The notes under the pieces are model-generated. The model had not been told where the DNA came from and did not search any database. It saw only the letters and a list, made by a program, of their open reading frames with translations. Shown in pieces: positions 3,417 to 20,763 of a DNA stretch of 48,562 nt (the stretch's first letter is position 1; every line of letters starts with the position of its first letter). The stretch comes from Candidatus Woesearchaeota archaeon. Its GTDB lineage: Archaea; Nanobdellota; Nanobdellia; Woesearchaeales; WJIZ01. The stretch spans positions 1-48,562 of the forward strand of contig JAAOYF010000016.1 in NCBI GenBank assembly GCA_018221205.1, given 5' to 3'. The translations under genes were made by a program, and so were the position numbers.

Positions 3417-4511
3417 ATGAACAAGAAAAATATACGCAAAAAAGTAGGGGAGTTTCTACAGAGCAATAAAGAGAGGATTGAGATCAAGGTCCCGAAGAAT
3501 TTTTCTTTATATTGGGTCAGGAATCCTATAGCAGTGGCATGGAGGATGTTGATTCTTGGTATCTTGACCAAAGTGCCTCCGATGAACCTGAAGAACTGGA
3601 TTTTTAAGCTCTTAGGCTATAATTTTGGCAAAGATGTGTGTCTGCCTGGCTTCATCGATATTGATCCGTTCTTTCCGGAATTGATAACTCTGAAAGAAGG
3701 CATCCTTGTGGGAGGATCTACTACCATTAAGCCCTGGATAGTGAAAGATGGAAAATTAACTTTAGGAAAAATTTGGGCTGGTAGGAGGGTATTGTTTGCA
3801 GGTTGGTCCGGATTGCGGCCAGGTGCCAAGATTCACACTAACACCATCACTGGTTTGCATTGCTTAATCGACACTGAAATTCCAAAAGACAGTTTTGTTG
3901 TCGGACACAATAAAATCTTGAAAACATGGAGCACAGAAGAAGTTGAAAGGCATTTTGGCGAAAGCAAGCATAATCCACATTATGCCAGAAACTACAAAAA
4001 AGAAACAACGAAATTTCGAACAGACCCCTCAGTCAGGAAAATTACGCTTCGAAATGATGGAAACAGGCTAAATGCAGGATGTGACTGGTGGAGAGCAAGG
4101 CCTGTCTGGCAAATCTATTGGAAAGGGGCTCTTGTGGAAGCAAGTCTGCTGTGCCCTTTTGAACCCATCCGCAAAATGCTCATGTGGATCATGGGAGTCA
4201 GGTGGGGAAAAAATTTCAAACTAGGCAAAAAAGTGATGTTTGATCATATCTATGGTGACATGGTACGATTCGGAGATAATTGTGTCATTGAAGACGGAGC
4301 CTATTTTGATGGCCATGACTACACAATCTCAGAAGGGATCTATGGCCGGACCACCATAGGCAATAATTTTCATGCGAAGAAAGGAGCCTATGTCCGCTCT
4401 GGATTAGTCATCGGCAATAATGTCACCTTAGAAGAGCATGCAGTATTGATCAAAGATGCTAAAGACAATGAAGTGTGGGCAGGCGCGCCTGCTAAACTGG
4501 TCGAGAAATGA
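3417..4511 (+). CDS. Tandem-duplicated left-handed beta-helix (hexapeptide) acyltransferase, YvoF-like
   Basis: Two similar halves (P.MNLKNWIFKLLG..FGK...DPFFPELI / PFEPIRKMLMWIMG..WGK...DHIYGDMV), hexapeptide repeats, C-terminal WAGAPAK. Confidence 0.8.
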   Translation: MNKKNIRKKVGEFLQSNKERIEIKVPKNFSLYWVRNPIAVAWRMLILGILTKVPPMNLKNWIFKLLGYNFGKDVCLPGFIDIDPFFPELITLKEGILVGGSTTIKPWIVKDGKLTLGKIWAGRRVLFAGWSGLRPGAKIHTNTITGLHCLIDTEIPKDSFVVGHNKILKTWSTEEVERHFGESKHNPHYARNYKKETTKFRTDPSVRKITLRNDGNRLNAGCDWWRARPVWQIYWKGALVEASLLCPFEPIRKMLMWIMGVRWGKNFKLGKKVMFDHIYGDMVRFGDNCVIEDGAYFDGHDYTISEGIYGRTTIGNNFHAKKGAYVRSGLVIGNNVTLEEHAVLIKDAKDNEVWAGAPAKLVEK

Positions 4512-5971
4512 ACAAACTGATTCCAGAGGGTGTGAAGCTGTGGATCCAGGAAGGAGCTGCTAATCTCCATTTTGGTTGGTATGTCGCGTATTCTTTCATC
4601 ACTGTTCTTCGTAGTTTCTTTGATCTTTACTGCACCATTGTCGTGCTTCAAATAAAGGATAATATCTTCACATATTGTTATGATGAACGTGAGCTGTTAG
4701 CGATTGGAAAAGAATTTGAGAAGCGACAACTTGCTAATGCCAACTACACCCAAGAGCTCATCAGTGATTGGAATGAACGTGTCGAGGCATTCTACCAGGC
4801 ATGTCAGGAAATTCATGAATCTGATTTATCAGAACTAACTGATGAACAACTGGCTTTGCTGTTTGAAAAATTTCTCAATAAATATACAGAAGAGTACGCT
4901 GCTCCCCTCCTAGCGGATTGTCTAGGGTGTTATTGTGAGATCGAAATACAAGACTTGCTTAAATCCCACTTGAAAAAAATAGAAAAGGAGGATCAATTCA
5001 CACGTTATCTAACTGCCCTTACTGCACCCATCCGAGATTCATTTATCGGTGAGGAGAAGATTGAACTCCTCGGTATCACAAAAGATTCCATAGATGGGAA
5101 GGATGTCTCAAAAGCAGTGGCTGCACATCAACAGAAATGGTTCTGGATTCAAAATAGTTACTTACGGGCGATTGTCCTTTCTGAGGATGATTTCATGCAG
5201 CGTATCAAAGAGCATGGGAAAGATCAGGCATATGTGCTGGATAAAGTTGTACATTATTCTGAAGAATTCACTAAGACAAAAACTGAAAGAGAACAGCTAC
5301 TTGATAAGATAGGTGCGTCAAAACGCCTACGGGTCTTACTCTACCTTATGGATGATCATACTTTCTGGCAAGACGAGCGAAAAAAAGTGAACCTACAAGC
5401 TGATCATCATATTGATCTGCTTCTCAAAGAAGTGAACCGAAGAAAAAAGATACCTTTTGACGACCTTCTTTATACCATACCATTCGAGGTCATTGATTTA
5501 CTTCGAGGCGAGCCAGTTGACCTGTCGATTATCCAGAAACGAAAAGAGATAGTGGGTATCATTTACACTCCTGATCAATATTTACCCTTGAATTATGAGG
5601 ATTCTGTCCGACTTGATAAGGAAATCAATAGCCAATATTCTATGAACGGCCTGGCTGATTTATTTGGTACAGTAGCAAATCTGGGAAAAGTAAGGGGAAA
5701 GGTGAAGATCCTCATGGAGCCAGATGATTTTAAGCTCATGGAAAAAGGAGATGTCCTTGTTACTTCTATGACCCGACCTGAGTTTGTCCCTATCCTGAAA
5801 AAAGCTGCTGCGATCGTGACAGATGAAGGAGGGCTTACTTGCCATGCAGCAATTGTTGCCCGAGAATTAGATGTACCTTGCATCGTCGGAACCAAAATAG
5901 CCACTAAAGTCTTAAAAAATGGCGATTCTGTGGAAGTGAATGCGAATCATGGGGTTGTGAGAATTCTATGA
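4508..5971 (+). CDS. Helical domain + PEP-utilising phospho-His (swivel) domain protein, paralog 1
   Basis: GDVLVTSMTRPEF...TDEGGLTCHAAIVARE..PCIVGTK; HQQKWFWIQNSY and WQDERKK motifs; ATGA overlap with upstream gene. Confidence 0.9.
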   Translation: MNKLIPEGVKLWIQEGAANLHFGWYVAYSFITVLRSFFDLYCTIVVLQIKDNIFTYCYDERELLAIGKEFEKRQLANANYTQELISDWNERVEAFYQACQEIHESDLSELTDEQLALLFEKFLNKYTEEYAAPLLADCLGCYCEIEIQDLLKSHLKKIEKEDQFTRYLTALTAPIRDSFIGEEKIELLGITKDSIDGKDVSKAVAAHQQKWFWIQNSYLRAIVLSEDDFMQRIKEHGKDQAYVLDKVVHYSEEFTKTKTEREQLLDKIGASKRLRVLLYLMDDHTFWQDERKKVNLQADHHIDLLLKEVNRRKKIPFDDLLYTIPFEVIDLLRGEPVDLSIIQKRKEIVGIIYTPDQYLPLNYEDSVRLDKEINSQYSMNGLADLFGTVANLGKVRGKVKILMEPDDFKLMEKGDVLVTSMTRPEFVPILKKAAAIVTDEGGLTCHAAIVARELDVPCIVGTKIATKVLKNGDSVEVNANHGVVRIL

Positions 5972-7404
5972 ATAAAGAAACTCTATTGAAAGTGGTGAAG
6001 CAGGATTGGTATATGCAGGGCTTTATCTCTTCAGTAACACTATTCTTTAACCCATTCTATTCTGGGGTGAAGATGAAAAAGTATCATCCGTATACCTATT
6101 CTTATCTGATGAGCTTCCATAAAGATGATTATGGTGAAGCTTACTATGGCATAGATGATATGAAAGCTATGTGGTATGAAATGGAGAAAGCGTACAAGAA
6201 AGATTCACAGCATTTTCTCAAGCAACGGGAAAAATATCGGAAGATTGTTGAGAGTTATCAACCTTTAGTCGAGGAATATGGAAAATTGGATATTACTACA
6301 CTCTCAGAAAAACAACTTATTGAGCTTGCACATGAGATGTTTGAATCTGCTTCTGAAACTGTGTGCATCTGCCATGATATCGAGGCATTCTCGATCACCA
6401 ATGACCGTAAATTGAGGCATGCGATCAAAGATAAGGTCGATGATGAGGCCATCATCAATAGATATGCAGAGCTTCTTGCCCACCCTATCTCTAAATCCTG
6501 GGCGAATGAGGCCGGAGCCGAGCTCTATGATATCTCTCAAATCAATGATAAACAAAAGCAAACCCAACTGCTTCAAGAACATGCACGGAAATACTTCTGG
6601 ATCAGAAATAATTATCTTCATTCTGAAGCGTTGACTGCTGCTGATTTCAGGGAAGAGATGGGGCATATGAAGGATTATGCTGCTATTGATTATGAAGCTA
6701 TCAAGAAGAAAAAGGTGGGTCTTATCACTGAATTAAACTTGGGACAGGATATTCAAGAACTTATCAAGCACATTGAGTTTTTTGTGGATTATCAGGATGA
6801 GCGGAAGAAGAATATCTTGATTTCGAATCATTATGTTGAACGCATTTGCTTTGAGTTTGCACGACGCTTCAATATTCCCAAACCATTAATAAAATATCTG
6901 CTCCCTCATGAGTTTAATCCAGCATTGTTGAAAAATGAAAAACTTCCCTCGATATTGGCAAAACGCAGAGAAGGATACCTTATCATCCTTTCTCCTGATG
7001 AGACTATCGTCATCGAGGGAGATGAGTTGAAAGAGTATGATAAGATATTGCATGAAGGAGGTATTGAGCATGATTCTGATATCCATGGATTGTCTGCATC
7101 TGGTGGAACTGCTATCGGAAGGGCAGTTATCTGCAAGACTGCTGACTCGATGAAGAATCTTCAGGAAGGAGATATTCTTGTTACTGCGATGACGCGGCCG
7201 GAATTTGTTCCTGCGATGAAGAAAGCTGCAGGCATTGTCACCGATGAAGGCGGCATTACGTCGCATGCAGCTATTGTCTCTCGTGAACTAGGCAAGCCGT
7301 GTGTTATCGGAACAAAAAATGCTACTCGCGTCATCAAAGATGGCGATTTAGTAGAAGTGAAAGGCAATCATGGAGTTGTGGTTATTATCAAGGGGGCAAA
7401 ATGA
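5968..7404 (+). CDS. Helical domain + phospho-His swivel domain protein, paralog 2
   Basis: TDEGGITSHAAIVSRE; HARKYFWIRNNY; YQDERKK; ATGA overlap. Confidence 0.9.
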   Translation: MNKETLLKVVKQDWYMQGFISSVTLFFNPFYSGVKMKKYHPYTYSYLMSFHKDDYGEAYYGIDDMKAMWYEMEKAYKKDSQHFLKQREKYRKIVESYQPLVEEYGKLDITTLSEKQLIELAHEMFESASETVCICHDIEAFSITNDRKLRHAIKDKVDDEAIINRYAELLAHPISKSWANEAGAELYDISQINDKQKQTQLLQEHARKYFWIRNNYLHSEALTAADFREEMGHMKDYAAIDYEAIKKKKVGLITELNLGQDIQELIKHIEFFVDYQDERKKNILISNHYVERICFEFARRFNIPKPLIKYLLPHEFNPALLKNEKLPSILAKRREGYLIILSPDETIVIEGDELKEYDKILHEGGIEHDSDIHGLSASGGTAIGRAVICKTADSMKNLQEGDILVTAMTRPEFVPAMKKAAGIVTDEGGITSHAAIVSRELGKPCVIGTKNATRVIKDGDLVEVKGNHGVVVIIKGAK

Positions 7405-8813
7405 AATGGTGGATATGGGAACGGCCAGCGACCATGCATATGGTATATACTGCTGCCTATTGCGCAGTCAAGCCATTGCATGATCTCTTTAACGCGTGCT
7501 ATGCTGATACGTTGTATGGATTATTTAAGAATGATATGATCAAATATTTTTGCAGCTATAAAGAACTCATTGACTATGGGAGAAAAATCGTCGATGATTT
7601 TGATGATCGAGACTATTATAAGAGTAAAATGGCTGATTGGGAAAAAAGGTGCAAGAAACTTACAGCGTTTTTAGAGAAATTCCAAGGCATCACGTTATTT
7701 GAGCTTTCTCAAGCAGAATTATCTAAGCTATATCATGAATTCGATGATATTTATCTTGAGTGGTGGGCGTTTGCCCAGGTTGCAGAACCCATTGCTTATT
7801 TTTGCGAGGAGGAGTTGAAGAAACTTGCTCCAAAACAACAGGATTTCAATCTTTTAGCATCCCCTACCAAGAGCTCATTTACTGGTGAGGAAGAGCATGA
7901 GCTGTTTGAGATTGTGAAACAAGCTCAACAAGGGGATGTCACTAGCCTTCTGGTGAATCATGCGAAGAAATATTTCTGGTTAGAGAATAATTTTCATGAT
8001 ACGAGGATATTAGGTGCATCTTATTTTGAAGAAAAAGTAAAGAAATTTCTCGATGATGGTGTTGATGTGGAGAAACTAGAAAAGGAGAATCTCAAACGCC
8101 TTACAGAAACCAAACAGAAAAAAACTGCACTGATGGATTCTCTGAACTTGGATGGGGAATCCCGTTTTATTGTCGAATTGATTGATGAATTTGCGTATTT
8201 CCAAGACGTCAGGAAGAAAATTGTGTTGTGGAGCAACCACGTTCTTGATTCTTTTGTTAAAGAGATAAGCAGGCGCTTCACTATTCCGTATGATGATGTC
8301 GCATGGCTCACTGCACCGCTTGCAAAGGAGTTGCTGAAAACAGGCAAGGTTGATCTTGAGTATGTCAAATCATTGAAACATTCTTTTGTGATCTATCGTA
8401 TTGATGGCCGTGTTGAATTGTTTTCCGGAAAAGAGGCCGAGAAGCATCATGAGAAGTTTTTCTCATCTGATGCACAGGAAGTGCGTGAAATCGAAGGCAT
8501 GGTGGCGTGCGAGGGACGGGCAAAAGGGAAAGTGAGAGTAATTGTCGATCCTAAGGAGATGAATACTATGCAGGAAGGAGAGATTTTGGTGACGACGATG
8601 ACCTCTCCAGATTTTGTCCGTGCCATGAAGAAAGCTGCAGCTATTATCACTGATGAGGGAGGCGTTACTTCCCACGCGTCTATTGTTAGTCGCGAGTTAG
8701 GGGTACCTTGTGTCATAGGCACTAAAATCGCGACAAAAGTACTCAAAACTGGCGATATCGTCGATGTTTATGCGAATCATGGCCTGATTAAAGTTGTGAG
8801 GAGGAAAAAATGA
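7401..8813 (+). CDS. Helical domain + phospho-His swivel domain protein, paralog 3 (start reassigned to 7401)
   Basis: TDEGGVTSHASIVSRE; HAKKYFWLENNF; FQDVRKK; AGGGGG SD and ATGA overlap at 7401. Confidence 0.9.
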   Translation: MKWWIWERPATMHMVYTAAYCAVKPLHDLFNACYADTLYGLFKNDMIKYFCSYKELIDYGRKIVDDFDDRDYYKSKMADWEKRCKKLTAFLEKFQGITLFELSQAELSKLYHEFDDIYLEWWAFAQVAEPIAYFCEEELKKLAPKQQDFNLLASPTKSSFTGEEEHELFEIVKQAQQGDVTSLLVNHAKKYFWLENNFHDTRILGASYFEEKVKKFLDDGVDVEKLEKENLKRLTETKQKKTALMDSLNLDGESRFIVELIDEFAYFQDVRKKIVLWSNHVLDSFVKEISRRFTIPYDDVAWLTAPLAKELLKTGKVDLEYVKSLKHSFVIYRIDGRVELFSGKEAEKHHEKFFSSDAQEVREIEGMVACEGRAKGKVRVIVDPKEMNTMQEGEILVTTMTSPDFVRAMKKAAAIITDEGGVTSHASIVSRELGVPCVIGTKIATKVLKTGDIVDVYANHGLIKVVRRKK

Positions 8814-9442
8814 AGATAAAATTTCTAGGACATGCGGGTTTTTTGATTGATGATTTGGTTATCGATCCATTTTTGACAGGAAATCCGAAAGCAGTGGACA
8901 AGCCTGCTGATATACAATGTAAATATGTCTTGATCACCCATGATCATCCAGATCATGTCGGAGATGCTTTCGATATCGCGAAAAAGAATGATGCAGTTGT
9001 CGTCGGTATGTATGAAGTGACTGCTAAGGCTGAAGAAGCAGGCTGCAAGACTGAGCCGATGAACATTGGAGGCAAGATTAAGCTTGGTGGTTGGGAAATC
9101 AAGATGGAGATGGCATTCCATAGCGCAGGAGTAGGTGCGCCAGCTAGTTTTATCATCAAAAAAAGCGGTAAAACAGTGTATCATGCTGGAGATACTTGTT
9201 ATTTCATGGACATGGAACGGTTCAAAGAGTATAGTATCGATATTGCGATGCTACCTATCGGAGATAGGTTCACGATGGGAGCTGAGGATGCGGCAAAAGC
9301 GTGCAAAGCTATTGGCTGCAAGACTGCCATTCCTATCCACTTTGGCACTTTTCCTTTTTTGGGTCAGAGTGCTGATACATTCAAGAAGCTTTGCAGCTGT
9401 GATTGTGTTGTTTTTGATGTTGGGGAAGTGAAAGAACTATGA
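8810..9442 (+). CDS. Metallo-beta-lactamase-fold metal-dependent hydrolase (UPF0173-like)
   Basis: FLGHAGF, IDPF, THDHPDH (HxHxDH), YHAGDT, LPIG..FTM, IPIHFGTF. Confidence 0.9.
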   Translation: MKIKFLGHAGFLIDDLVIDPFLTGNPKAVDKPADIQCKYVLITHDHPDHVGDAFDIAKKNDAVVVGMYEVTAKAEEAGCKTEPMNIGGKIKLGGWEIKMEMAFHSAGVGAPASFIIKKSGKTVYHAGDTCYFMDMERFKEYSIDIAMLPIGDRFTMGAEDAAKACKAIGCKTAIPIHFGTFPFLGQSADTFKKLCSCDCVVFDVGEVKEL

Positions 9443-11709
9443 CCTGGACACTTTATTACACTCGGAGATACAATATTCAACGGCATGAAGTAGTGTTCAG
9501 AGGAATGGAAGGAGATTTCTATAAACCCTTTAACCCAGATTTTAAGATGTTGGTTGTTCCTGATGGAGATAATGTCTCTTGTTATTATGAAAAAGAGAAA
9601 TTTGATCCTTTTGCAATACGAATCTACAAGGAACTCAAGCCGCATCTCCAGAAACATTATGTGGCTTTTCTTCAGGAAGGAGAGACTTTTGTTGCTTTTT
9701 GCAAAGAGATGAACAAGAGGGAACTCTCTTCCTGTTCTAATACAGAGCTCACCACCTTTTATGAGGAATTTTTTAGAAAAAATATGAAATTCTTCTCCAC
9801 ATCAGTATGGTTACCTTTCCTTATTGCATCCTTTGTCGAGCACGATGTCGAAAAGGAAATTGAGAAACTTTCTCTTGACAAACAAAAGTATGTAGCTGCT
9901 GTATTCACTCCACACATCGAGAATGCTGCCATGCAGATGCAGAATGATATTGCTACAGGCATGTCAGCGGAGGAATTATATCAAAAATATCGATGGATGT
10001 CTGTATCAGACATTGATGATGAGCCATGGGATCTTGAATATTTTAAATCCTTAGAAAAAGCAACTAAAGTTGAACGCGATGATAGTGATTTCAAGGAACT
10101 TATGAGCTCTGCAAGTAATGAGCAAAAAAAGATTTTTCGCATGGGAAAGCTCCATACATACATTAAGGATAAGCGAGACGAACAACGACGAGAAGGACAA
10201 TTCTATATCCAATCATTATACCGAGAGATGGGAAAACGCTTGGGATTAAGCTTGAAGGAAGTGACTTACCTCACTAGCCAGGAAATTATTGATAAACTTA
10301 ATGGGAAGAATGTTGAGGTTGATATCAAAGGAAGGATTAAGGGCTATACTTATCGATGGAGCCTAGGCAGGCATGAGATTCTTTCTGGAGATCATGGCGA
10401 CCTTGAACCGTGGAAAAAAATCTTTTCTCGCGAGTATTCGATGCAATATTGCGAAATTGTACTTCGATCCTTAGGCAAGGAAGTAGAGCATATCCTGCCT
10501 TATACGATGCAGAATCTTCTTATTGTCCCTGATAATGAGAATCAAAGCTGTTATTTTGATACGCAAGAGTATAATGATTTCATGAATGCTCTTGTAGACC
10601 ATTTTACAGGCTCTGCAGAAAAATTTAGAGAGTTTATCGATCTTTTTTTCAAGATCGGACAGGATTATGTTGATTTTTGCAAAAAAATCCATGAAAAAGA
10701 TGTAGAAAATCTCCATAATGATGAACTGAAGCAGATCATCCTTGATTATTATCCTAAAGCGATCGATTACACCTGCATTTTATGGGTAGGATTCTTACTT
10801 AATCAGTATTGGACAGAGGCAAACACAAAAGATTTTAGTGAAGATGTCAGAAAATCAATGCTTATTCCTGCTAAAAAGACTACAGTCATGAAGATGCAAG
10901 AGGAAGCAAGCAAGATCTCTCCGAATGATCCTGATAAAATAGCTGAGTTCATGAAGAAGTACCAATGGATACCTTGTCTGGATATTCATCATAAGCCATG
11001 GAAAATGAGAGATGCCACTGCATACATTATTACGCACACTGAACTTCCATCTGAGCAATTCATTACAGAGCCCGAGTCTGATAAGGAATTCTTTACTATG
11101 GTGAGGGAATTAGTGTATATCAAAGAAGTACGGGATGATTTCCGTAGGAAAGGTGTCTTCTATATCCAGAAACTGTATCAAGAGATTGCTAAACGCGCAG
11201 GAATAGATCTTGAAGACATTGCGTATTGGAGTGAGCCAGAGATCATTCAATTTCTTGAAGATAAAAAAATCGAGGATAAAACATCCCGGAAGAAAGGGTT
11301 TATGCTCTATTTCAAGGATGGAAAGATAACGTATGTTGATGAGAATATTTCTGATGAACTGAAAAACTTAGGATTTTCAGAAGAGGAAAGGAATGATGAA
11401 ATAAAAGGAACTGTTGCGCAAGAAGGAACTGCTAAGGGCAAAGTGAAAATTGTCCGCACTGTGAAAGATATCCCTAAAGTCGAAGAGGGAGATATCATGG
11501 TTACGGTGACCACTCATCCTGATTATGTCCTTGCTATGCAGAAGGCTGCTGCCATCGTTACAGATGAAGGGGGAGTTACTTCACATGCTGCTATTGTCTC
11601 TCGGGAGCTGAAGAAACCTTGCATCGTGGGTACGAAACATGCCACAAAGATTTTAAAAGATGGTGAAATTGTCGAGGTAGATGCTGTGAATGGCACGGTT
11701 AAACGATGA
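9439..11709 (+). CDS. Double helical domain + phospho-His swivel domain protein, paralog 4
   Basis: TDEGGVTSHAAIVSRE; internal repeat (LVVPDGDNVSCYY / LIVPDNENQSCYF; KYRW / KYQW; YIKDKRD / YIKEVRD). Confidence 0.9.
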   Translation: MTWTLYYTRRYNIQRHEVVFRGMEGDFYKPFNPDFKMLVVPDGDNVSCYYEKEKFDPFAIRIYKELKPHLQKHYVAFLQEGETFVAFCKEMNKRELSSCSNTELTTFYEEFFRKNMKFFSTSVWLPFLIASFVEHDVEKEIEKLSLDKQKYVAAVFTPHIENAAMQMQNDIATGMSAEELYQKYRWMSVSDIDDEPWDLEYFKSLEKATKVERDDSDFKELMSSASNEQKKIFRMGKLHTYIKDKRDEQRREGQFYIQSLYREMGKRLGLSLKEVTYLTSQEIIDKLNGKNVEVDIKGRIKGYTYRWSLGRHEILSGDHGDLEPWKKIFSREYSMQYCEIVLRSLGKEVEHILPYTMQNLLIVPDNENQSCYFDTQEYNDFMNALVDHFTGSAEKFREFIDLFFKIGQDYVDFCKKIHEKDVENLHNDELKQIILDYYPKAIDYTCILWVGFLLNQYWTEANTKDFSEDVRKSMLIPAKKTTVMKMQEEASKISPNDPDKIAEFMKKYQWIPCLDIHHKPWKMRDATAYIITHTELPSEQFITEPESDKEFFTMVRELVYIKEVRDDFRRKGVFYIQKLYQEIAKRAGIDLEDIAYWSEPEIIQFLEDKKIEDKTSRKKGFMLYFKDGKITYVDENISDELKNLGFSEEERNDEIKGTVAQEGTAKGKVKIVRTVKDIPKVEEGDIMVTVTTHPDYVLAMQKAAAIVTDEGGVTSHAAIVSRELKKPCIVGTKHATKILKDGEIVEVDAVNGTVKR

Positions 11710-13187
11710 AATATATCAAAGGCCTTATGAAACAGAAGCTGAAGCAGTGGATTAATAAGAAATGGTATCATCAACGCTTTGATGGCTCTCCTTATTTGAT
11801 GCATTTGATAGCTGAGGCTGAGATTAGAAAAGAAAAGCGAAAGCATGATGGTGATAACGAAGTGCATTATTGTTTTTATGATGATGGTAAAGGGGATTGG
11901 TACATCTTAATGGATGATATTAAGAAAATTTATACTGATGTTATCAGCTTATCAAAGAAAAATCCAAACATTAGCAAAGATTTAATCCTGTCCTGGAAAA
12001 AAGATGAAGATATTTTCTATAAGAAGTGTATAGAAATAGGAAAATTACAGCTAAAGGAGTTATCAGACAAAGAATTAATTGCACTGCATGACGAATTTAC
12101 TGATATTGCGCTCAATAACAATACCTCTTCTTCAGTCATTGATGGATTTGCTCTAGGCACCGATGAACTGATTGCAGATATGATCAAAGAAGGGTATGAT
12201 GCATCTGAATTAAAAGACAAGATGCGATACACGGAGGTTTTTTCAATTCTCACTGCACCTGTCCATCTCTCTTTCATCAATGAAGCAGAAGTTTCGTTAT
12301 TGAAAGTAGCTTTGGACCCGACTGAAGACAGTTTAAAACATCACCAGAAAAACTATTTCTGGACAAGAAACAATTATGTTGATAGTTTTGTGCTTACTGT
12401 TGATGATTTTAAGAAGGAAATAAGAAAACTGCACGATATGGATATCGATATTATGAAAGAAATTGAAAACATTGAGCAGACTCCTGAAATAAACAAGAAA
12501 AAGAAAAAGGAATTAATGGATAAACTAAGCTTAAGCCAAGAGCTGAAAATATTAATAACCATAAGTGAAGACTTTACGTACTGGCAGGATGAGAGAAAAC
12601 GATCTACATTCTGGAATGCTCATTATTTCCTCCTCTTGCTAAAAGAAATCTCCAGGAGAGTTACATTGCCTTTTGAGGAATTGAAATATGTTACACCAAG
12701 AGAAATTCCTAACTTATTTGTGAATCCGCCAACAGTTGAAGAATTAAAAGAAAGAAGGAAAAATTCTGTGTATTACTGGGATAAAGAAGGGATGGAATGC
12801 CTCTATGGCAAGGAAGCAGATGGCATAAAACAAGCAGTATTGGGAACTCAGGATTTATCAGATATTGATGATTTTCGTGGGTTGACCGCTTCCTTAGGAA
12901 AAGCAGTCGGTAAAGTGAAAGTGTTGAAGTCTGCTAAAGAAGTGGGCAAGGTTGAGGAAGGCGATATTCTTGTTGCGGTCATGACACGGCCTGATTATGT
13001 CCCTGGCATGAAGAAAGCTGGAGCAATTGTTACGGATGAAGGCGGTGTTACTTGTCACGCTGCGATTGTCTCTCGTGAACTGGGCAAACCATGCATCATC
13101 GGCACGAAGATTGCCACTAAGGTTTTAAAGGACGGACAATTAGTCGAGGTTAACGCTAACCATGGGTGGGTGAAAATAATACGATGA
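11706..13187 (+). CDS. Helical domain + phospho-His swivel domain protein, paralog 5
   Basis: TDEGGVTCHAAIVSRE; HQKNYFWTRNNY; WQDERKR; ATGA overlap. Confidence 0.9.
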   Translation: MKYIKGLMKQKLKQWINKKWYHQRFDGSPYLMHLIAEAEIRKEKRKHDGDNEVHYCFYDDGKGDWYILMDDIKKIYTDVISLSKKNPNISKDLILSWKKDEDIFYKKCIEIGKLQLKELSDKELIALHDEFTDIALNNNTSSSVIDGFALGTDELIADMIKEGYDASELKDKMRYTEVFSILTAPVHLSFINEAEVSLLKVALDPTEDSLKHHQKNYFWTRNNYVDSFVLTVDDFKKEIRKLHDMDIDIMKEIENIEQTPEINKKKKKELMDKLSLSQELKILITISEDFTYWQDERKRSTFWNAHYFLLLLKEISRRVTLPFEELKYVTPREIPNLFVNPPTVEELKERRKNSVYYWDKEGMECLYGKEADGIKQAVLGTQDLSDIDDFRGLTASLGKAVGKVKVLKSAKEVGKVEEGDILVAVMTRPDYVPGMKKAGAIVTDEGGVTCHAAIVSRELGKPCIIGTKIATKVLKDGQLVEVNANHGWVKIIR

Positions 13188-14608
13188 AATGGGAGATACA
13201 AGAAGCACCGTGTTCAAGCTATTGTGTGTTTGGGTGGGTGGATGCCGCAGTTGATGGATTGAAGAAGCATTTCGGCAAAGGATTGTCTATTCATGTCTAC
13301 ATTGGGAAGAAAGGGAAAGGCTATGAGTATTTCTTGCGAGAGGATCTTATTGAAACAGGTAAACATATCATCGAACAGTTCAAAGATAAGAAATTTAGGA
13401 AGGAAATCAGAGATAGTTGGAAGGGGTTCAAGAAAACAATGGATGCTCTTTTCGGAAAAATAATGCAAGGGAAACATCATGACTTGTCTATCGAGGAATT
13501 AGAGAAGCTGTATCATGTGTTTAATGCTGCTTATGCTGAATATTATGATTTGATGATGTTCGCAGAGCCAGTTGAACTTGTACTTGATGGTTTTTTTAAG
13601 GATTCTATCAAGAAATTGAAAGAGGATTTTTCTATTCTGACAACTCCTCCAGAGCTTAGCTTTATCCAGAAAGAGAAGTTGAGTGTTATCAAACTGATTG
13701 AGCATATTGGTAAGGATGCCATCATTAGCGGATTGAATGCAGATCAAAAGAGAGCGTTGCACGAGCATATCCATCAATTTGCTTGGCTTCGGTCGAGTTA
13801 TCTTGAAACACCTACGTTGTCTGAACAGGATGTGCTTGACCGAGCAAAAGAACTTGTTCAAAACGAGGTTGTTGAACGAGAAAAGAAAAAGATTCTTGGA
13901 TTTGAGAAAGATATTACGCAGAAAAAAGAAAGCATTATCTCAAAAAGCAAGCTTTCTCCTGAAACAGTGGAAATGATCCATATTTCTGATTTTACTGGTA
14001 TACTGCATGACGAACGTAAAGAATATACTCTCAAATGGCTATACTACTGTGCTCTGTTACTTGAAGAAATCGGCAAACGATTCAAGTATTCCTTGCATGA
14101 TATGTTCTTTTCTTCGAAAATAGAGATAGAACGTCTTTTCAAGGAAAAGAAACTCGATCCTCAAAAAATCAAAGAAGGATTTGATGCATTTACTTATATT
14201 CGAGAACCAGGGAAATCGACAGAATATTATGGAAAAGATACTTTGGGATATGAGAAGCAGTTTATGCATGAAGTAGATACTGATGTCAGCACTATTCATG
14301 GCATGCCTGTTTCAGGGGGTATTGCTGTCGGTAAAGTGAAAATTATCCATCTTACTAGTCAATTTCCTAAATTTAATGAAGGCGATATCTTAGTTGCACC
14401 GATGACTCGGCCGGATTATGTTCCTTTAATGGGAAGAGCAGCTGCTATTGTGACTGATCAAGGAGGCATCACTAGCCATGCAGCTATTGTCTCTCGTGAA
14501 CTGGGAAAACCTTGCGTTGTGGGGACGAAAACGGCAACAAAAGTGTTGAAAGATGATGATATGGTGGAAGTGAATGCAAATCACGGCTGGATAAGGATTA
14601 TCAAATGA
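13184..14608 (+). CDS. Helical domain + phospho-His swivel domain protein, paralog 6 (start reassigned to 13184)
   Basis: TDQGGITSHAAIVSRE; HIHQFAWLRSSY; LHDERKE; GGGTGA SD and ATGA overlap. Confidence 0.9.
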   Translation: MKWEIQEAPCSSYCVFGWVDAAVDGLKKHFGKGLSIHVYIGKKGKGYEYFLREDLIETGKHIIEQFKDKKFRKEIRDSWKGFKKTMDALFGKIMQGKHHDLSIEELEKLYHVFNAAYAEYYDLMMFAEPVELVLDGFFKDSIKKLKEDFSILTTPPELSFIQKEKLSVIKLIEHIGKDAIISGLNADQKRALHEHIHQFAWLRSSYLETPTLSEQDVLDRAKELVQNEVVEREKKKILGFEKDITQKKESIISKSKLSPETVEMIHISDFTGILHDERKEYTLKWLYYCALLLEEIGKRFKYSLHDMFFSSKIEIERLFKEKKLDPQKIKEGFDAFTYIREPGKSTEYYGKDTLGYEKQFMHEVDTDVSTIHGMPVSGGIAVGKVKIIHLTSQFPKFNEGDILVAPMTRPDYVPLMGRAAAIVTDQGGITSHAAIVSRELGKPCVVGTKTATKVLKDDDMVEVNANHGWIRIIK

Positions 14609-16032
14609 GCCCTATTGCAAAACATAAGCTGAAAGAATTTCCTATTAACGTGCTTCAGCAAGATTCTTACAATAAGACATTCCATTCTAAAGTGTTCACT
14701 CTTTTTGCGTCTTCAAATAGTATGATCTATTGCTTTGCTCAATTGCATAAGCCTCACTATGATTATTCTTTTACGTTTCTGGAGAATGAAGAAGGGAATT
14801 GGAACATGGATGCTGCTAGTTTACTTCGAGTTCGCGAATGGGTTGTGGAGAACGCGAAGACATCTACACAGCATATTGTGAAACTCTATGATCAATGGAG
14901 AACATACTGTGGGGATTTTACTCAGCTTTGTGATAACCTACGAGAAAAAGAGTTATCTTCTCTCTCTGACAAAGAACTATATGAAGAATTGAAGAATTTG
15001 TATGAGTGTTATCTTCTTGCAGGTTCTGTCGCGTATGTTACTGATTGCTTTATGTCCCGTGGAGAGGAAGATTTTTTCGAGCAGCTCCTTGCTGAGCAAG
15101 GGGTGGCGAAGGATATTGTTTCACAGATTGATTCTTTATCCTATACCTTGCAGTCACAACAGGAACTTGTTGATCTTGGTAAATGCATTAAGAAGAACTA
15201 TGGGACTTTTCCTCTTTTTGATGATCTATCTCAGGATTTTAAGGATGAGTTGAAGAACCATGAAGAGCGCTATTTTTGGATACAAAATAATTATCACCAT
15301 GTTCATTATGTTTCAGCTCAAGAATTCTATAAACAGATTCCAGATTTGAAAGAAACTAAGGCTGAAAAGAAGGAGATTCCTCCACAAGAACCTTTTGTTC
15401 AGAATCTTTTGAACATCGCCCAACTCTTTTCTGGATGGAAAGATGTCAGAAAAAGCGGTGTGGCGATGGGAGCGCATTTCTTTGATGTTTTCTTGAAAGA
15501 GATTGCTCGAAGGACTGCTTATTCTGCTGATGATCTTAGCTTTCTTATCTTCCACGAGATCAAGCCATTATTAGATGGAGAGGATTTCAAAGATATTATT
15601 GCATTAAGAAGAAAGAAATGCTTTTTCTCGGTGAATGCAGACAGTTATTTTGTCTGCGAAGGCGAGGAAGCAGAGAAATATTTTGCTTATAAGGAAAAAG
15701 AAGATTATTCTCAACTAGTAGAATTGAAAGGTGTGGTTGCATGCAAGGGCAACGCAACAGGCAAAGTCAGAGTTATCCTGAAAACAGGCGACATGAAGGA
15801 TTTTAAAGAAGGAGAGATCTTGGTTGCGAATCAAACCACTCCTGAATTTGTCCCTATCATGAAAAAAGCGGCTGCGATCATCACTGAACAAGGCGGCATC
15901 ACCAGTCATGCAGCTGTTGTTTCTCGTGAATTAAATGTGCCGTGCATCATCGGGACGAAGATTGCCACCAAAATATTGAAAAATGGGCAAGAGATTACTG
16001 TTGATGCTGAAAAAGGCATGGTGAGATTATGA
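14605..16032 (+). CDS. Helical domain + phospho-His swivel domain protein, paralog 7
   Basis: TEQGGITSHAAVVSRE; HEERYFWIQNNY; WKDVRKS; ATGA overlap. Confidence 0.9.
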   Translation: MSPIAKHKLKEFPINVLQQDSYNKTFHSKVFTLFASSNSMIYCFAQLHKPHYDYSFTFLENEEGNWNMDAASLLRVREWVVENAKTSTQHIVKLYDQWRTYCGDFTQLCDNLREKELSSLSDKELYEELKNLYECYLLAGSVAYVTDCFMSRGEEDFFEQLLAEQGVAKDIVSQIDSLSYTLQSQQELVDLGKCIKKNYGTFPLFDDLSQDFKDELKNHEERYFWIQNNYHHVHYVSAQEFYKQIPDLKETKAEKKEIPPQEPFVQNLLNIAQLFSGWKDVRKSGVAMGAHFFDVFLKEIARRTAYSADDLSFLIFHEIKPLLDGEDFKDIIALRRKKCFFSVNADSYFVCEGEEAEKYFAYKEKEDYSQLVELKGVVACKGNATGKVRVILKTGDMKDFKEGEILVANQTTPEFVPIMKKAAAIITEQGGITSHAAVVSRELNVPCIIGTKIATKILKNGQEITVDAEKGMVRL

Positions 16033-17429
16033 AAATTACTCAAAAGATAAATCAAATCAAATGGTATCGACAAGGCGCTAACTCAAGACTATGTTTTATC
16101 ATGAAGGGATGGGACGGGGCTTATTGCTATGCCCCCACAACATTAGGGATAACGTTTATCTTGAATGGGATTAAGATGGAGGGATACTTTGATGAAGATT
16201 ATATGAATGACCATGCTCGCAATATGATTAAATGCTCCAGAGAGAATACTCATAAAATTGACAAAGAGATGGATAGATCTAGGAAAGCATGGAAATTTCT
16301 AGAACAAATATTCGCTAAGGTCGATTATTCTGATATGGAAGCAATAAAGGCATCTATTACCGAACTTGATAAGGGCAACAAAGATATGTGGGATCCCGGT
16401 GTCGTTGCCGATCATTTTGATCCACATGGGGAGGAATTCTTACAAGAGGAATTAAAGAGGCAAGGTATTAAAATGGACAAGCAAGATCTTATTGTTATGC
16501 TGAGACCCAGCGAAATGACATACTATCAACAATTCAAATTAGCATTGCTAAAAGCTTTCTTCAAAAAAGACACTTCAGTTGTTGACCTATTGGTCAAGGA
16601 ATATTTTTTCATTGACAATAGCTGGGAATCCGCAAAAATTCTAACTGCGGATGACTTTAGAAAGAGATATGATGAACTCAAAGAGGATATTTCGGATGCT
16701 AAACTTCAATTTGAAGATTTGCAGAATGACTGGAAGTCAGAACAAAAGAAAATAATTACAAAATATAACCTGCCAAAAGAGATGCAAAATATCTTCCATC
16801 TCTATCAACAACTATTTTTCTTAAGGGATGAAAGAAAGAAATATGTGCAGCTGCTTGTGCATCACTTAAGCATACTCTACACAAAACTATCTGAGATCTT
16901 GGATATCCCATTTGAGACCCTGTCATTGATTAATTCAGATGCATTTACTAAAGATATGGACAGGGAGAGTATACTTGAGATCTGCATGCGAAGGAAGAAC
17001 TATTTTGCTTCAGCCTATCAAGGAGATAAAAATACCATTTTTGAGGGAGATGATGCAAAAGCTTTAGCAGAGGAGCTGCAAGCTGCAGAAGAATTTCAGG
17101 GAAAGGTGATTACAGGCCAAACAGCCTGTGGTGGAAAAGCAAAGGGATTGGCAAGAATAGTCATCGGTGAGACCCATTTCGGAAAGTTCATGGAAGGAGA
17201 TATCTTAGTTGCACCTATGACTCGGCCTGAGTATGTGCCGTTGATGAAGAAAGCTAAGGCGATCATAACAGATGAAGGAGGCATAACCTGTCATGCTGCA
17301 GTCATCTCTAGAGAGCTGAAAGTGCCTTGTGTCATCGGCACGAAAATCGCCACTAAAGTGTTAAAAGATAATGATATGATCGAAGTAGACGCTGATAAGG
17401 GCACGATAACGATTTTAGACAATCTTTAA
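16029..17429 (+). CDS. Helical domain + phospho-His swivel domain protein, paralog 8
   Basis: TDEGGITCHAAVISRE; KEYFFIDNSW; LRDERKK; ATGA overlap. Confidence 0.9.
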   Translation: MKITQKINQIKWYRQGANSRLCFIMKGWDGAYCYAPTTLGITFILNGIKMEGYFDEDYMNDHARNMIKCSRENTHKIDKEMDRSRKAWKFLEQIFAKVDYSDMEAIKASITELDKGNKDMWDPGVVADHFDPHGEEFLQEELKRQGIKMDKQDLIVMLRPSEMTYYQQFKLALLKAFFKKDTSVVDLLVKEYFFIDNSWESAKILTADDFRKRYDELKEDISDAKLQFEDLQNDWKSEQKKIITKYNLPKEMQNIFHLYQQLFFLRDERKKYVQLLVHHLSILYTKLSEILDIPFETLSLINSDAFTKDMDRESILEICMRRKNYFASAYQGDKNTIFEGDDAKALAEELQAAEEFQGKVITGQTACGGKAKGLARIVIGETHFGKFMEGDILVAPMTRPEYVPLMKKAKAIITDEGGITCHAAVISRELKVPCVIGTKIATKVLKDNDMIEVDADKGTITILDNL

Positions 17430-17454
17430 AAACTTCTAGCTCCTAACATAAACC

Positions 17455-18909
17455 ATGAATACATCCCAGATGAAGAGATGGATCCCTAAAGTGCATTGGT
17501 ACCTGCAAGGAGGGGAGATGAAGCCGGTCTATGGACTGGTTCCTGCTATCGCCTGCAAAAAGACCATGCAGCGTATTCTCAAACTTAACTATGGACCTTT
17601 AGCTGTACATGCCAGGCATGGCCATGCTTTTTGGTTCATGGACAAGGACCAGATGATGAAAATGGCCAAGACTATCCTTAGGAGATACCATAAAGATACA
17701 AAATACCTGGACAAACTCTATAAAACATGGCAGAAAGAGCTCAAAACTTTCTATGCATTGGTTGATGAAGTGAATACTAAGAATTTCAAGAAGCTGACGA
17801 ACCGAGAACTGACTCTTTACTATAAAGCATTCCTCAAAGCACATATCAACGTATGGAATCATTTCATCTTCATCGATGCGTTCGATCCTTATGGAGATCA
17901 ATTTGTCCAGGATCATCTGAAGAAGAACAAGCTGGATATCGCTAAAGAGGATCTTTCAGCATTATTGCAATCTCCCCTTCCTTCGTATATCACCGAGGAG
18001 AATATCGCTTTTCTCCAGATTGTTCAGAAGGCGTTGAAGAAAGATAGGAAATTAAATGATTATCTTGTTGAACATCAGAAAAAATTCTATTGGTTCAGGA
18101 ACAATTATGGCCATGTCAAATATATGACTGTTGAAGATTTTTACAAAAGATTGCATATGTTTGTGCAGAAACATTCTGCTCAGGAGATCAAAGAAGAGCT
18201 GAAACAGATACAGAAGATCTCTGATCGTGATAAAGTCATGCAGAAATGTAAGCTATCTAAGGCTGATAGGGTATTCTTTGATCTCTTCTCAAAGCTTACT
18301 TCTTATCGGGATGAGCGGAAGAAGATGAACCTTTTAGGATTGACAGCTGCCAGGTATGTCCTGTATAAGATCTCAAAACGATTAGAGATTGATGTAGGGA
18401 CACTAGAATATCTTGCGCCGTGGGAAGTCAAAGACATTTTCCATTGGGATAGAAAGAAGCTGTTTACGTTACGTGGAAGAAAAGAGAATTGCATCTGGAT
18501 CGCTCCTGAAAGGGATTTCCATTATTTTGGCATGGATGATGCAAAAGAGATGTTCGATCTTATCAACAAAAGCATCATGAGTAAGCATGAAGAATTGAAA
18601 GGAGTGACTGCATCTGTGGGAAAAGCAAAAGGAAGAGTGAAGATCATCCATCTGGTGAAAGATTTCCCTCGTTTTGAGAAAGGAGATATACTGGTTACGC
18701 AAATGACCCGGCCAGAGTTCACTCCTATCCTAAAGAAAGCTGCTGCTATTGTGACAGATGAAGGCGGGATAACTTCACATGCTGCTATTGTTTCTCGAGA
18801 ACTAGGTATACCTTGCGTTATCGGAACACAGATCGCTACTAAGAAATTGAAGGAAGGCGATCTTATTGAAGTTGATGCTGATCACGGTAGAGTGAAGATT
18901 CTTCGTTAA
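17455..18909 (+). CDS. Helical domain + phospho-His swivel domain protein, paralog 9
   Basis: TDEGGITSHAAIVSRE; HQKKFYWFRNNY; YRDERKK. Confidence 0.9.
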   Translation: MNTSQMKRWIPKVHWYLQGGEMKPVYGLVPAIACKKTMQRILKLNYGPLAVHARHGHAFWFMDKDQMMKMAKTILRRYHKDTKYLDKLYKTWQKELKTFYALVDEVNTKNFKKLTNRELTLYYKAFLKAHINVWNHFIFIDAFDPYGDQFVQDHLKKNKLDIAKEDLSALLQSPLPSYITEENIAFLQIVQKALKKDRKLNDYLVEHQKKFYWFRNNYGHVKYMTVEDFYKRLHMFVQKHSAQEIKEELKQIQKISDRDKVMQKCKLSKADRVFFDLFSKLTSYRDERKKMNLLGLTAARYVLYKISKRLEIDVGTLEYLAPWEVKDIFHWDRKKLFTLRGRKENCIWIAPERDFHYFGMDDAKEMFDLINKSIMSKHEELKGVTASVGKAKGRVKIIHLVKDFPRFEKGDILVTQMTRPEFTPILKKAAAIVTDEGGITSHAAIVSRELGIPCVIGTQIATKKLKEGDLIEVDADHGRVKILR

Positions 18910-18950
18910 GTTAATAAATACTTGATTATTAGCTTTGTTGGGGTGTTAGT

Positions 18951-19925
18951 ATGGATATTATCGCAGAACTCAAGGAAAAAGCTCAGAAGAATCCAAAAAG
19001 ACTTCTTTTTGTCGAAGGAGATGATATGAGGGTTGTGAAAGCTGCTGCATTATGTGCTGCAGCAAAAGTGTGCAAGCCAGTTGTCTTGGCGAAAAAGGAG
19101 TCTCAAGAGGATGCAAAGAAAGAGGGCATTGCTCTAGAAGGCATAGACTTCATCGATTATATCACTTCTGACAAGCTTGATGATTATGTTGCAAAACTTG
19201 TCGAATTGCGGAAGCACAAAGGCATGACAGAAGAGAAAGCGCGAGAATTATTGAAGAATCCTGCTTATTTCGGTGCGATGATGCTGAAACTGAAGGAAGT
19301 TGACGGCGCTGCTGGTGGAAATTCAATGTCGACAGCAGAATGGATGCGTCCAGTCTTCCAGGTTGTAGGCCCGAAAAAAGGAGTGAAGACTGTTTCGGCA
19401 GTATGCTTCATCCCGATGAAAGAGAAAGTTGTTTTCTTCGGGGACACTGATTTCATCATCGATCCGAATGTAGAACAGTTGGCACAGATCGCGATCAATG
19501 CAGCTGACTTTGCTAAGGGAATAGGCATAGAGCCGAAAGTTGCTTTATTGTCTTATTCCACCAAAGGAAGCGGCGAGCACGAGGTGTTAAAACCGATCAG
19601 AGAGGCATTAGCTCTTGTCAAGAAGCAAAGGCCAGATATCATTGTTGATGGAGAGATGCAGGTTGATGCAGCAGTCAATCCTAAAGCAGCACAGAAGAAA
19701 AGTCCAGATTCTCCTCTAAAAGGAGAGGCGAATGTACTTATCTTTCCTAACATCACTGTCGGGAATGTCCTGATACATAGTTTAGGACAGTGGACTGATT
19801 ACAAATTGTATGGAAGCTTTCCTGTAGGATTATCAAGGCCTGTCGCTAATGGGGGCAGGAGTTTCTCTCCAGAGCAGATATTTGAAAGCGTTGTGCCATT
19901 ATGTGCGGAGATCGCCCATGATTAG
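18951..19925 (+). CDS. Phosphate acetyl/butyryltransferase (Pta) family protein with divergent active-site residues
   Basis: EG.D.RV..AA, ELRKHKGMT, PKVALLSYSTKGS, DGEMQVDAA, ANVLIFP motifs. Confidence 0.85.
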   Translation: MDIIAELKEKAQKNPKRLLFVEGDDMRVVKAAALCAAAKVCKPVVLAKKESQEDAKKEGIALEGIDFIDYITSDKLDDYVAKLVELRKHKGMTEEKARELLKNPAYFGAMMLKLKEVDGAAGGNSMSTAEWMRPVFQVVGPKKGVKTVSAVCFIPMKEKVVFFGDTDFIIDPNVEQLAQIAINAADFAKGIGIEPKVALLSYSTKGSGEHEVLKPIREALALVKKQRPDIIVDGEMQVDAAVNPKAAQKKSPDSPLKGEANVLIFPNITVGNVLIHSLGQWTDYKLYGSFPVGLSRPVANGGRSFSPEQIFESVVPLCAEIAHD

Positions 19926-20763
19926 ATTTCTTGATTCTATCAAGAAAGAGGATATCGCTATTGTCGGCGGTAAAGGAGCCAACTTAGGAGAGATGTTCGG
20001 CACGTTTCCTGTACCGAATGGATTTGTCGTTACCACAAAAGCCTATCGTAATTTCCTCGAGATCAGGAAGATCAAGCAAGATCTGATGGAAAAACTTGAC
20101 AAGATCGATGTCGGCAACCATGAAGTTCTAGAAAAAATCTCAAAAGAAGTGAAGAAATTAATCCTAGATGAAGAGATCTTTGAGGATCTGGTGAAAGACA
20201 TCACCAAGGCATTAGAGAAACTGGAAGGCAAGAATTTTGCAGTCAGGAGTTCAGCAACAGCTGAAGATCTCATAACGGCATCATTTGCAGGACAGCAGGA
20301 TTCTTATTTGGATGTTGAAAGGAAGGATGTTGTTGAGGCAGTAAAGAAATGCTGGGCCTCTCTTTATAATCCAAGAGCGATCTATTATAGGCATGAGAAG
20401 AAGATCGGGCATGATGTGGAGATGGCTGTTGTTATCCAGGAGATGATTCCAGCTGATTTTGCTGGCGTGATGTTCACTGTAGACCCTATAAAGAAGAAAT
20501 TTCTGCTTATTGAGGCTGCTCCAGGCCTAGGAGAGCAGGTAGTCTCGGGCTCTATAACGCCTAGTAGTTTCATGCTTGATAGGAAAACCTTTGAAATTTT
20601 GGAGAAAAACGAGCAATATGAGCTAAATTTGGAGCTGATACCAGCTATCGGAAGGATAGGCATGGATATTGAAAAGAGCTATAAAAGGCCTCAAGATATT
20701 GAGTTTGCGGTCAAAGACAAAAAGATCCATATCCTTCAGTCAAGAGCCATAACTACGCTTTAA
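19918..20763 (+). CDS. Stand-alone PEP synthase/PPDK N-terminal ATP-grasp domain protein (281 aa, start reassigned to 19918)
   Basis: GGKGANLGE, AVRSSA.AED...ASFAGQQDSYL, MAVVIQEMI, AGVMFT.DP, GLGEQVVSG, PQDIEFA, LQSRAIT, then stop. Confidence 0.92.
   Translation: MIRFLDSIKKEDIAIVGGKGANLGEMFGTFPVPNGFVVTTKAYRNFLEIRKIKQDLMEKLDKIDVGNHEVLEKISKEVKKLILDEEIFEDLVKDITKALEKLEGKNFAVRSSATAEDLITASFAGQQDSYLDVERKDVVEAVKKCWASLYNPRAIYYRHEKKIGHDVEMAVVIQEMIPADFAGVMFTVDPIKKKFLLIEAAPGLGEQVVSGSITPSSFMLDRKTFEILEKNEQYELNLELIPAIGRIGMDIEKSYKRPQDIEFAVKDKKIHILQSRAITTL

Follow-up and report, generated by a model that had tools for sequence, protein, structure and literature searches.

A candidate split dikinase with nine substrate modules and one ATP-grasp protein in a Woesearchaeota genome

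The window analysed here, a stretch of 48,562 nucleotides, is contig C64 of an archaeal genome of 1.28 Mb that is 94.8% complete; the nearest named relatives of one of its operon proteins belong to Woesearchaeota or Nanoarchaeota. From 3417 to 20763 it carries thirteen plus-strand genes, most of them with overlapping stop and start codons, and this operon probably extends past the gene for a stand-alone ATP-grasp protein to 21853. We propose, with reasonable confidence, that the operon encodes a split one-to-many dikinase in which one ATP-grasp protein would charge nine modules, each phosphorylating its own, probably small-molecule, substrate.

Nine swivel modules and a single free ATP-grasp

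Nine co-oriented open reading frames of the operon each contain a C-terminal PF00391 swivel domain (E 1e-24 to 8e-29). The T/SxxGGxxxH motif with the catalytic His is present in all nine modules, and T444, H446, A447, R452 and E453 (module 1 numbering) are invariant among them, in agreement with an earlier note on this DNA that had called nine paralogs with an intact His swivel. A search of the whole genome returned ten swivels, two ATP-grasp genes and one PF02896 TIM barrel; the extra swivel, the extra ATP-grasp and the sole TIM barrel belong to an intact phosphoenolpyruvate (PEP) synthase, an 805-codon frame on contig C1. The only free ATP-grasp of the genome is the protein encoded at 19918-20763 in the operon. 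The note's claims of one stand-alone ATP-grasp and no TIM barrel at the locus hold in this genome, and the separate ATP-binding partners elsewhere that would have spoken against its reading are absent. All ten N-terminal substrate domains (N-domains) of the genome lie within the operon; there are ten in nine modules because module 4 has two N-domains and one swivel. The genes are as follows.

3417-4511 (+): acyltransferase-like protein that opens the operon, a double left-handed beta-helix (LbH) (PF00132); invariant His300 in the second domain
4508-5971 (+): module 1, RPH-fold substrate domain (residues 1-380) and swivel with His446 (AlphaFold 2 model, VIA-align)
5968-7404 (+): module 2, in a tree clade of 20 domains from 18 genomes (PF00391, His motif)
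7401-8813 (+): module 3 (PF00391, His motif)
8810-9442 (+): metallo-beta-lactamase-fold metal-dependent hydrolase of the PRK00685 type, translationally coupled
9439-11709 (+): module 4, two substrate domains and one swivel, 756 aa (domain profile)
11706-13187 (+): module 5, conserved core subfamily with a polar conserved N-terminal motif set (subfamily clustering)
13184-14608 (+): module 6 (PF00391, His motif)
14605-16032 (+): module 7 (PF00391, His motif)
16029-17429 (+): module 8 (PF00391, His motif)
17455-18909 (+): module 9, closest database relative examined P0085 (43%), which is fused to a HAD phosphatase domain
18951-19925 (+): phosphotransacetylase (Pta)-like protein with a rebuilt active site (full-length Pta match)
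19918-20763 (+): stand-alone ATP-grasp (PPDK_N, PF01326), 281 aa, overlapping the stop codon of the Pta-like gene
20891-21853 (+): likely serine hydrolase of alpha/beta fold, invariant Ser199 and His279 (alignment of homologues)

The earlier note described the paralogs as tandem, with the ATP-grasp gene last. The co-oriented operon stands, but the metallo-beta-lactamase-fold gene interrupts the module genes, the Pta-like gene sits between the modules and the ATP-grasp gene, and the locus probably reaches 21853; moreover, 3417-4511, which had been counted to the module locus, encodes the double LbH acyltransferase and not a module. None of the nine proteins submitted to PADLOC was matched (0/9), and promoter and terminator counts for the locus showed no excess over chance.

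Pairwise identity among the operon swivels is 49-64%, and they are 37-44% identical to the swivel of the genome's own PEP synthase. The modules are not an assembly repeat, since the swivels share only 60-72% identity with the reference copy at the DNA level and the N-domains are 13-27% identical to each other.

To model the substrate domain, residues 1-380 of module 1 were folded by AlphaFold from a 42-row alignment (pLDDT 95.3), and a single-sequence fold with a pLDDT of 34 was set aside. In Foldseek, the top five rows for this model were rifampin phosphotransferase (RPH; E 4e-3 to 1.4e-2, TM 0.40-0.49). VIA-align against 48,161 chains returned RPH 5hv1 with Z 13.0 and rmsd 4.8, the 310 aligned residues extending across the whole rifampin-binding domain (residues 323-753), and the next row had Z 7.9. 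These results support the RPH substrate fold that the earlier note had expected; the modules other than module 1 are tied to the RPH-type substrate domain by profile homology. The N-domain has about 370 residues and is about 11% identical to the RPH domain.

A swivel shared by two N-domains, as in module 4, would make it possible to move phosphate from one substrate to another without ATP; P0022, P0025 and P0046, judged from their length and number of domains, have the same layout of two N-domains and one swivel.

One ATP-grasp and many modules across genomes

Five array-rich relatives gave 16, 17, 21, 27 and 53 swivel matches, each genome having exactly one ATP-grasp frame that stands alone, i.e. 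15 to about 50 modules per ATP-grasp, compared with 9:1 here. We then surveyed 401 genomes of the same order, counting swivel matches up to 14 per genome; 70 of the 401 had at least five matches and 65 at least six. A stand-alone ATP-grasp frame was present in 48 of the 401 genomes, one each at E up to 1e-108, a threshold applied to the best candidates of each genome (five or fewer), such that second copies may escape; G043 has two short ATP-grasp frames. Among the 65 genomes with at least six swivels, 53 have an ATP-grasp (43 stand-alone and 10 long fused), and a stand-alone frame was found in 3 of the 317 genomes with three or fewer. As related genomes are not independent, a Fisher test on these counts was set aside. 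The unpublished genomes G319 and G370 are included; without them, the stand-alone count falls from 43 to 41 and the count of Pta variants given below from 33/34 to 31/32, and further unpublished genomes contribute only to the total of 401. A first genome scan, queried with a single ATP-grasp, had given no matches.

The one-to-many ratio recurs not only as separate genes but also as polyproteins. In 10 of 34 long proteins taken from the 150 best profile matches, one ATP-grasp is joined to two to six swivels, and in one more to a single module; such polyproteins occur in eleven genomes whose loci were fetched. The longest, of 4,201 aa, carries eight swivels and a single ATP-grasp at its C terminus; in another, of 3,761 aa, the ATP-grasp is at the N terminus. 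The ATP-grasp can be first, last or internal, which is what a shared charger would lead one to expect. We still infer action in trans from these natural fusions, which are its strongest support; by analogy with known split enzymes, charging of all modules by the single ATP-grasp is highly probable.

A search with the N-domain profile gave 7,514 clusters (50% identity), 2,990 of them at E up to 1e-30, and no Pfam family covers the N-domain in the Pfam copy searched. The family was also found in Patescibacteria and Micrarchaeota. For subfamily analysis, we used 60 loci chosen around arrays plus the window; their 248 domains fell into 156 groups at 33% identity, of which 111 are singletons, and only 15 of the 248 have their nearest neighbour in their own genome. 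Judging from this number of groups and the scarcity of same-genome neighbours, we conclude that the modules are old, exchanged lineages rather than the outcome of a recent local expansion. A small number of subfamilies are present as a single copy per genome in 11-14 genomes; that of module 5 has one copy in each of 14 genomes at a mean identity of 52%. The swivel His is kept in 248/248 swivels of this set. The residue two positions before it is Thr in all nine operon modules and in 206/248 swivels and is Met in none. In 94 of 137 cases the swivel travels with its own N-domain. One frame, L002:2201-3305 (G047:C3), is an N-domain without swivel that overlaps a separate 121-codon swivel frame, which may reflect a frameshift, an error of assembly or yet another split.

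The neighbours of the arrays are genes for enzymes of small molecules and for regulators of these, namely HAD, histidine-phosphatase-like and low-molecular-weight phosphatase genes, TrmB genes and acyltransferases; the densities of phosphatase and TrmB neighbours are inflated, as their profiles were seeded from the same loci. HAD phosphatases are also fused to modules (P0085, P0147). At L270, L278 and L284, in three genomes, ten related genes that are methyltransferase-like by motif sit among the modules, as do three that are, also by motif, pyridoxal-phosphate-enzyme-like.

Relation to known dikinases and origin of the parts

The split between an ATP-grasp and a substrate-swivel protein is a known enzyme type. 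According to the available part of PMC12167813, HpeHI (Rhodococcus), CreHI (Corynebacterium) and PpsAB (Thauera) are two-component dikinases that consist of one pair each and act on phenols, HpeH and HpeI being separate proteins that dock transiently and require the His. The array resembles them in that the free ATP-grasp subunit is encoded separately and the second subunit combines an RPH-type substrate domain, as modelled for module 1, with a C-terminal His swivel carrying the T/SxxGGxxxH motif. It differs from them in having nine modules per ATP-grasp (up to about 50 in relatives) with N-domains that diverge as described above, and in being accompanied by a rebuilt Pta, an LbH protein and a hydrolase. 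Moreover, the array swivels have Thr where HpeH, like RPH, has Met two residues before the His (PMC12167813, same part). Models of the PRK08296 type match array modules in the swivel region only.

RPH (Listeria, 5FBS/5HV1; PMC4844700) has the same three domain types, and the residues aligned to its ATP-site residues Lys22, Arg117 and Glu297 are kept in 19918-20763, with Ser at Thr136. Unlike the array, RPH is a single chain, and its substrate domain has about 430 residues, whereas that of the array is shorter and detached from the ATP-grasp. The RPH model NF041857 has a cut-off of 999 bits; the modules score 59-89 bits and the ATP-grasp 236. Models for PigC and RedH give scores far below cut-offs; their matches lie in the swivel and, in part of the modules, also in the end of the N-domain. 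PigC and RedH are single-chain enzymes, unlike the split array.

PEP synthase appears to be the closest source of both the array ATP-grasp and the swivel, although the array lacks the pyruvate-binding PF02896 TIM barrel and its swivel is C-terminal. The ATP-grasp 19918-20763 scored E 2e-53 with archaeal PEP synthase versus E 2e-35 with HpeI (9goj). In a FastTree phylogeny of 141 ATP-grasps, with group labels assigned by rule, the array-linked ones lie among PEP synthases in at least two clades and outside the main RPH-like clade. Together with the Thr that precedes the His where HpeH and RPH have Met, which also supports this origin, the array ATP-grasp and swivel look derived from PEP synthase and not from a split RPH. 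The subclade of 19918-20763 is without a stretch of about 27 residues that is seen in other stand-alone copies (6/10 rows).

In a search outside which most of the subscription literature lay, we found no published account of one-to-many arrays, of polyproteins or of the rebuilt Pta. The arrays and the Pta variant are unmentioned in the available parts of PMC8421398, PMC8204110 and PMC6744442, and the first rows of the PMC8204110 supplement list only PEP synthase among such proteins. The earlier note knew of no characterised example; in the literature searched, this still applies to the one-to-many array but not to the split itself, which is in print (PMC12167813, available part).

Acyl-handling genes and the likely role of the modules

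The best hint at the chemistry of the arrays comes from the conserved genes for the Pta-like protein, the LbH protein and the hydrolase. For Methanosarcina thermophila Pta, the available parts of PMC9706017 and PMC6461089 describe Asp316 as the base, Ser309 and Arg310 as the residues that determine the rate and Lys283 as a contact of CoA. The protein encoded at 18951-19925 matches Pta (M. thermophila 1QZT) and the MaeB Pta-like domain over its full length and keeps the CoA-binding Arg87 and Arg133 as well as Arg310; unlike Pta, it has His for Lys283, Gly for Ser309 and Gln for Asp316, and its gene lies beside dikinase modules and not beside ackA. It scores under the TIGR00651 and NF007233 cut-offs. 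Among 148 aligned Pta sequences, 62 have His283 and Gly309, 61 of which are without Asp316, and the tree of these sequences has a clade of matching size (~62; support 0.88). A metagenome scan with the protein returned relatives of 33-42% identity only.

The variant is linked to the arrays. In 61 relatives we found 27 Pta copies: 23 have the normal motif, without any module closer than 1.5 kb (0/23), while the remaining four are variants and all adjoin a module or the ATP-grasp. In the survey, 34 of 401 genomes have the variant (the Pta of G143 is intermediate and was excluded), and 33 of these have at least five swivels, i.e. 33/70 of such genomes. A module or ATP-grasp lies within 1.5 kb in 28 of the 30 best variant loci, and in P0008, a three-module polyprotein, the variant is fused between modules. 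In several array genomes, the variant coexists with a normal Pta. Prediction of a complex between a Pta-like dimer and a swivel scored 0.00; this gave no answer and counts neither for nor against.

Among 22 variant genomes with fetched loci, 18 have an LbH gene, 12 have a serine hydrolase whose HSSG motif is invariant, and four others have a homologue of 20891-21853, giving 16/22 for either hydrolase family. The two families are treated as separate because their profile comparison was not significant (probability 7.5). Given these linkages and the variant's presence in 33/70, about half of the array genomes appear to carry an acyl-handling cassette. Homologues of 20891-21853 adjoin the ATP-grasp or stand one gene away in four other arrays; one non-homologous alignment row (L050 in A5) was dropped in A8, and Atlas leads for this protein were all below 0.9. 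For the LbH protein, the best NCBIfam match is heptaprenylglyceryl phosphate O-acetyltransferase (E 2.7e-25, far below cut-off) and the PDB match is maltose O-acetyltransferase; its His300 is invariant in a 14-member alignment. No homologue of the metallo-beta-lactamase-fold gene was seen in the other arrays fetched. The genome gave no matches to acetate kinase, ADP-forming acetyl-CoA synthetase, POR or phosphoketolase, and has pyruvate-dehydrogenase-type E2 and AMP-binding genes.

Three further observations concern these neighbours. A Tyr followed by K/R-A-A is frequently the C terminus in both serine-hydrolase-like families (20891-21853; L268:5251-6213), and this shared tail might serve as a signal for sorting or degradation. 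At G000:C1:23189-24175, about 13 kb from the PEP synthase gene, the genome has another copy of the 20891-21853 gene family. A HAD-like family with a DxD motif (L268:6213-7025), absent from the window's operon, is found at eight loci, where its gene immediately precedes the Pta variant or neighbours the hydrolase gene.

For the operon, we propose that the ATP-grasp would pyrophosphorylate the swivel His with release of AMP and Pi, by analogy with RPH and HpeHI, in a docking that would be transient as in HpeHI; the charged swivel would turn to the N-domain of its own module and phosphorylate the compound bound there, presumably a small molecule that would thereby be trapped, activated or detoxified. 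Overall, analogy makes it reasonably probable that the modules act as small-molecule kinases. The rebuilt Pta-like protein, the LbH protein and the serine hydrolase may, less firmly, carry out a step with an acyl phosphate or acyl-CoA that is coupled to one module or more. Phosphatase and TrmB neighbours and the HAD fusions fit reversible small-molecule chemistry; the receiver and helix-turn-helix (HTH) fusions described below leave a signalling role open. The earlier note's idea of one ATP-grasp feeding nine specificity modules is supported in its architecture; it left out four operon genes (LbH, metallo-hydrolase, serine hydrolase and Pta-like).

Several points weigh against this dikinase model. 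The Foldseek E-values for the RPH match are weak, Z 13 is near the level reachable by chance for helical folds, and the N-domain profile searched against PDB sequences found no RPH match up to E 10; therefore, the long RPH profile alignment is partly carried by the swivel. The second transfer of RPH requires Arg666, Glu667 and Lys670 (PMC4844700, available part). The profile alignment places D-x-R-K opposite R666-E667-x-x-K670, with Asp and Lys at Glu667 and Lys670 and no Arg aligned to the essential Arg666. Because this motif is only 60-75% conserved among the 248 domains (Asp289 60%, Arg291 75%, Lys292 66%), it may be that part of the modules are not kinases. We saw no concerted evolution of the swivels of a genome; since swivels are no more alike within (mean identity 51.6%) than between genomes (50.5%), there is no sign in the sequences of tuning to the resident ATP-grasp. 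Moreover, 12 of the 65 array genomes have neither a stand-alone nor a long fused ATP-grasp at the strict threshold; one of these, G270, had a fusion when its locus was examined. Finally, fusions with a receiver (P0014) and an HTH domain (P0043) fit signalling equally well.

Such signalling is the core of the first alternative, which we consider unlikely: a phosphorelay or sensor network in which the ATP-grasp charges the swivels, the N-domains sense ligands or dock to proteins and the phosphorylation state of regulators serves as output, as in the phosphotransferase system. The rebuilt Pta would then be an acetyl-CoA sensor. In MaeB malic enzymes, a Pta-like domain acts in this way. Loss of the catalytic Asp316 and Ser309 would suit a sensor, and up to 53 copies per genome, the 156 subfamilies, the conserved regulatory Thr two residues before the His, the receiver, HTH and HAD fusions and a TrmB gene at most 1.2 kb from a module in 11 of 15 cases (a density inflated by the profile seeding) would suit a network. 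However, the receiver and HTH fusions make up just 2 of the 34 long proteins scanned, the PF03618 Thr kinase was not found in the 95%-complete genome, and the Pta-like clade has retained Arg310 and acquired a near-invariant His, a pattern that points to changed chemistry more than to decay. Also, the characterised proteins of this fold in the available parts of PMC4844700 and PMC12167813 are all small-molecule kinases.

An assembly line, in which the modules activate building blocks and, with the acyltransferase, the Pta-like protein, the hydrolase and methyltransferases, make one product (a modified glycan, a lipid or a secondary metabolite), is improbable. PigC activates a building block by phosphorylation. 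Translational coupling of the operon, polyproteins with up to eight modules, the few subfamilies found once per genome and the frequency of LbH and hydrolase genes in the fetched Pta-like loci (18/22 and 16/22) would agree with one pathway; module sets that vary widely between genomes (111/156 subfamilies are singletons), gene order that is not conserved, many scattered and solitary modules and no carrier protein seen argue against it.

Reverse energy harvesting is a very unlikely explanation. Here, modules would take phosphate from acetyl phosphate or scavenged donors and the ATP-grasp would make ATP from AMP and Pi, replacing acetate kinase. It would account for a Pta-like gene in a genome with pyruvate-dehydrogenase-type E2 genes but without AckA, ADP-forming acetyl-CoA synthetase and phosphoketolase, and HpeH alone does exchange phosphate between substrates (PMC12167813, available part). 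However, the catalytic residues of the Pta are changed, and several array genomes keep a normal copy beside it. Moreover, by textbook energies, acetyl phosphate (about -43 kJ/mol) is too weak to drive AMP + Pi -> ATP (about +64).

That the modules are decaying fragments or mis-assembled copies of PEP synthase is refuted: their best NCBIfam matches are PEP synthase models, which is the mislabelling that the earlier note foresaw, but these matches fall on the swivel region, the genome has an intact PEP synthase elsewhere, all module frames are open with the His kept, the N-domain matches 7,514 clusters and the swivel DNA is 60-72% identical.

Beyond the split dikinase of this operon, we tentatively suggest that ultra-small symbionts among the archaea and bacteria may have a cell-wide phosphohistidine bus, a possibility that we rate as rather less likely: a PEP-synthase-derived ATP-grasp would serve tens of exchangeable modules, drawn from thousands of families overall, with phosphatases as erasers and a Pta, acyltransferase and hydrolase link to acyl-CoA. 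If true, it would be a new way for biosynthesis-poor cells to capture, detoxify or sense host or environmental chemicals. The present genome spends nine genes (~14 kb) and some relatives 20-50 genes on a family currently annotated as PEP synthase pieces, despite the stripped genomes of Woesearchaeota and Patescibacteria. If one ATP-grasp serves all modules, these 7,514 sequence clusters would form a natural plug-and-play kinase platform, and the module substrates would tell what uncultured cells take from their hosts or defend against in them. As the Pta is rebuilt, some 'pta' calls in metabolic maps of Woesearchaeota probably do not indicate acetate fermentation.

Two genes upstream of the operon are of separate note. 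The window encodes at 126-1172 a RibD-like protein in which the reductase domain precedes the deaminase domain, the reverse of the usual order, and at 2527-3279 (-), divergent from the operon, a 250-aa protein with no family match and with basic N- and C-termini.

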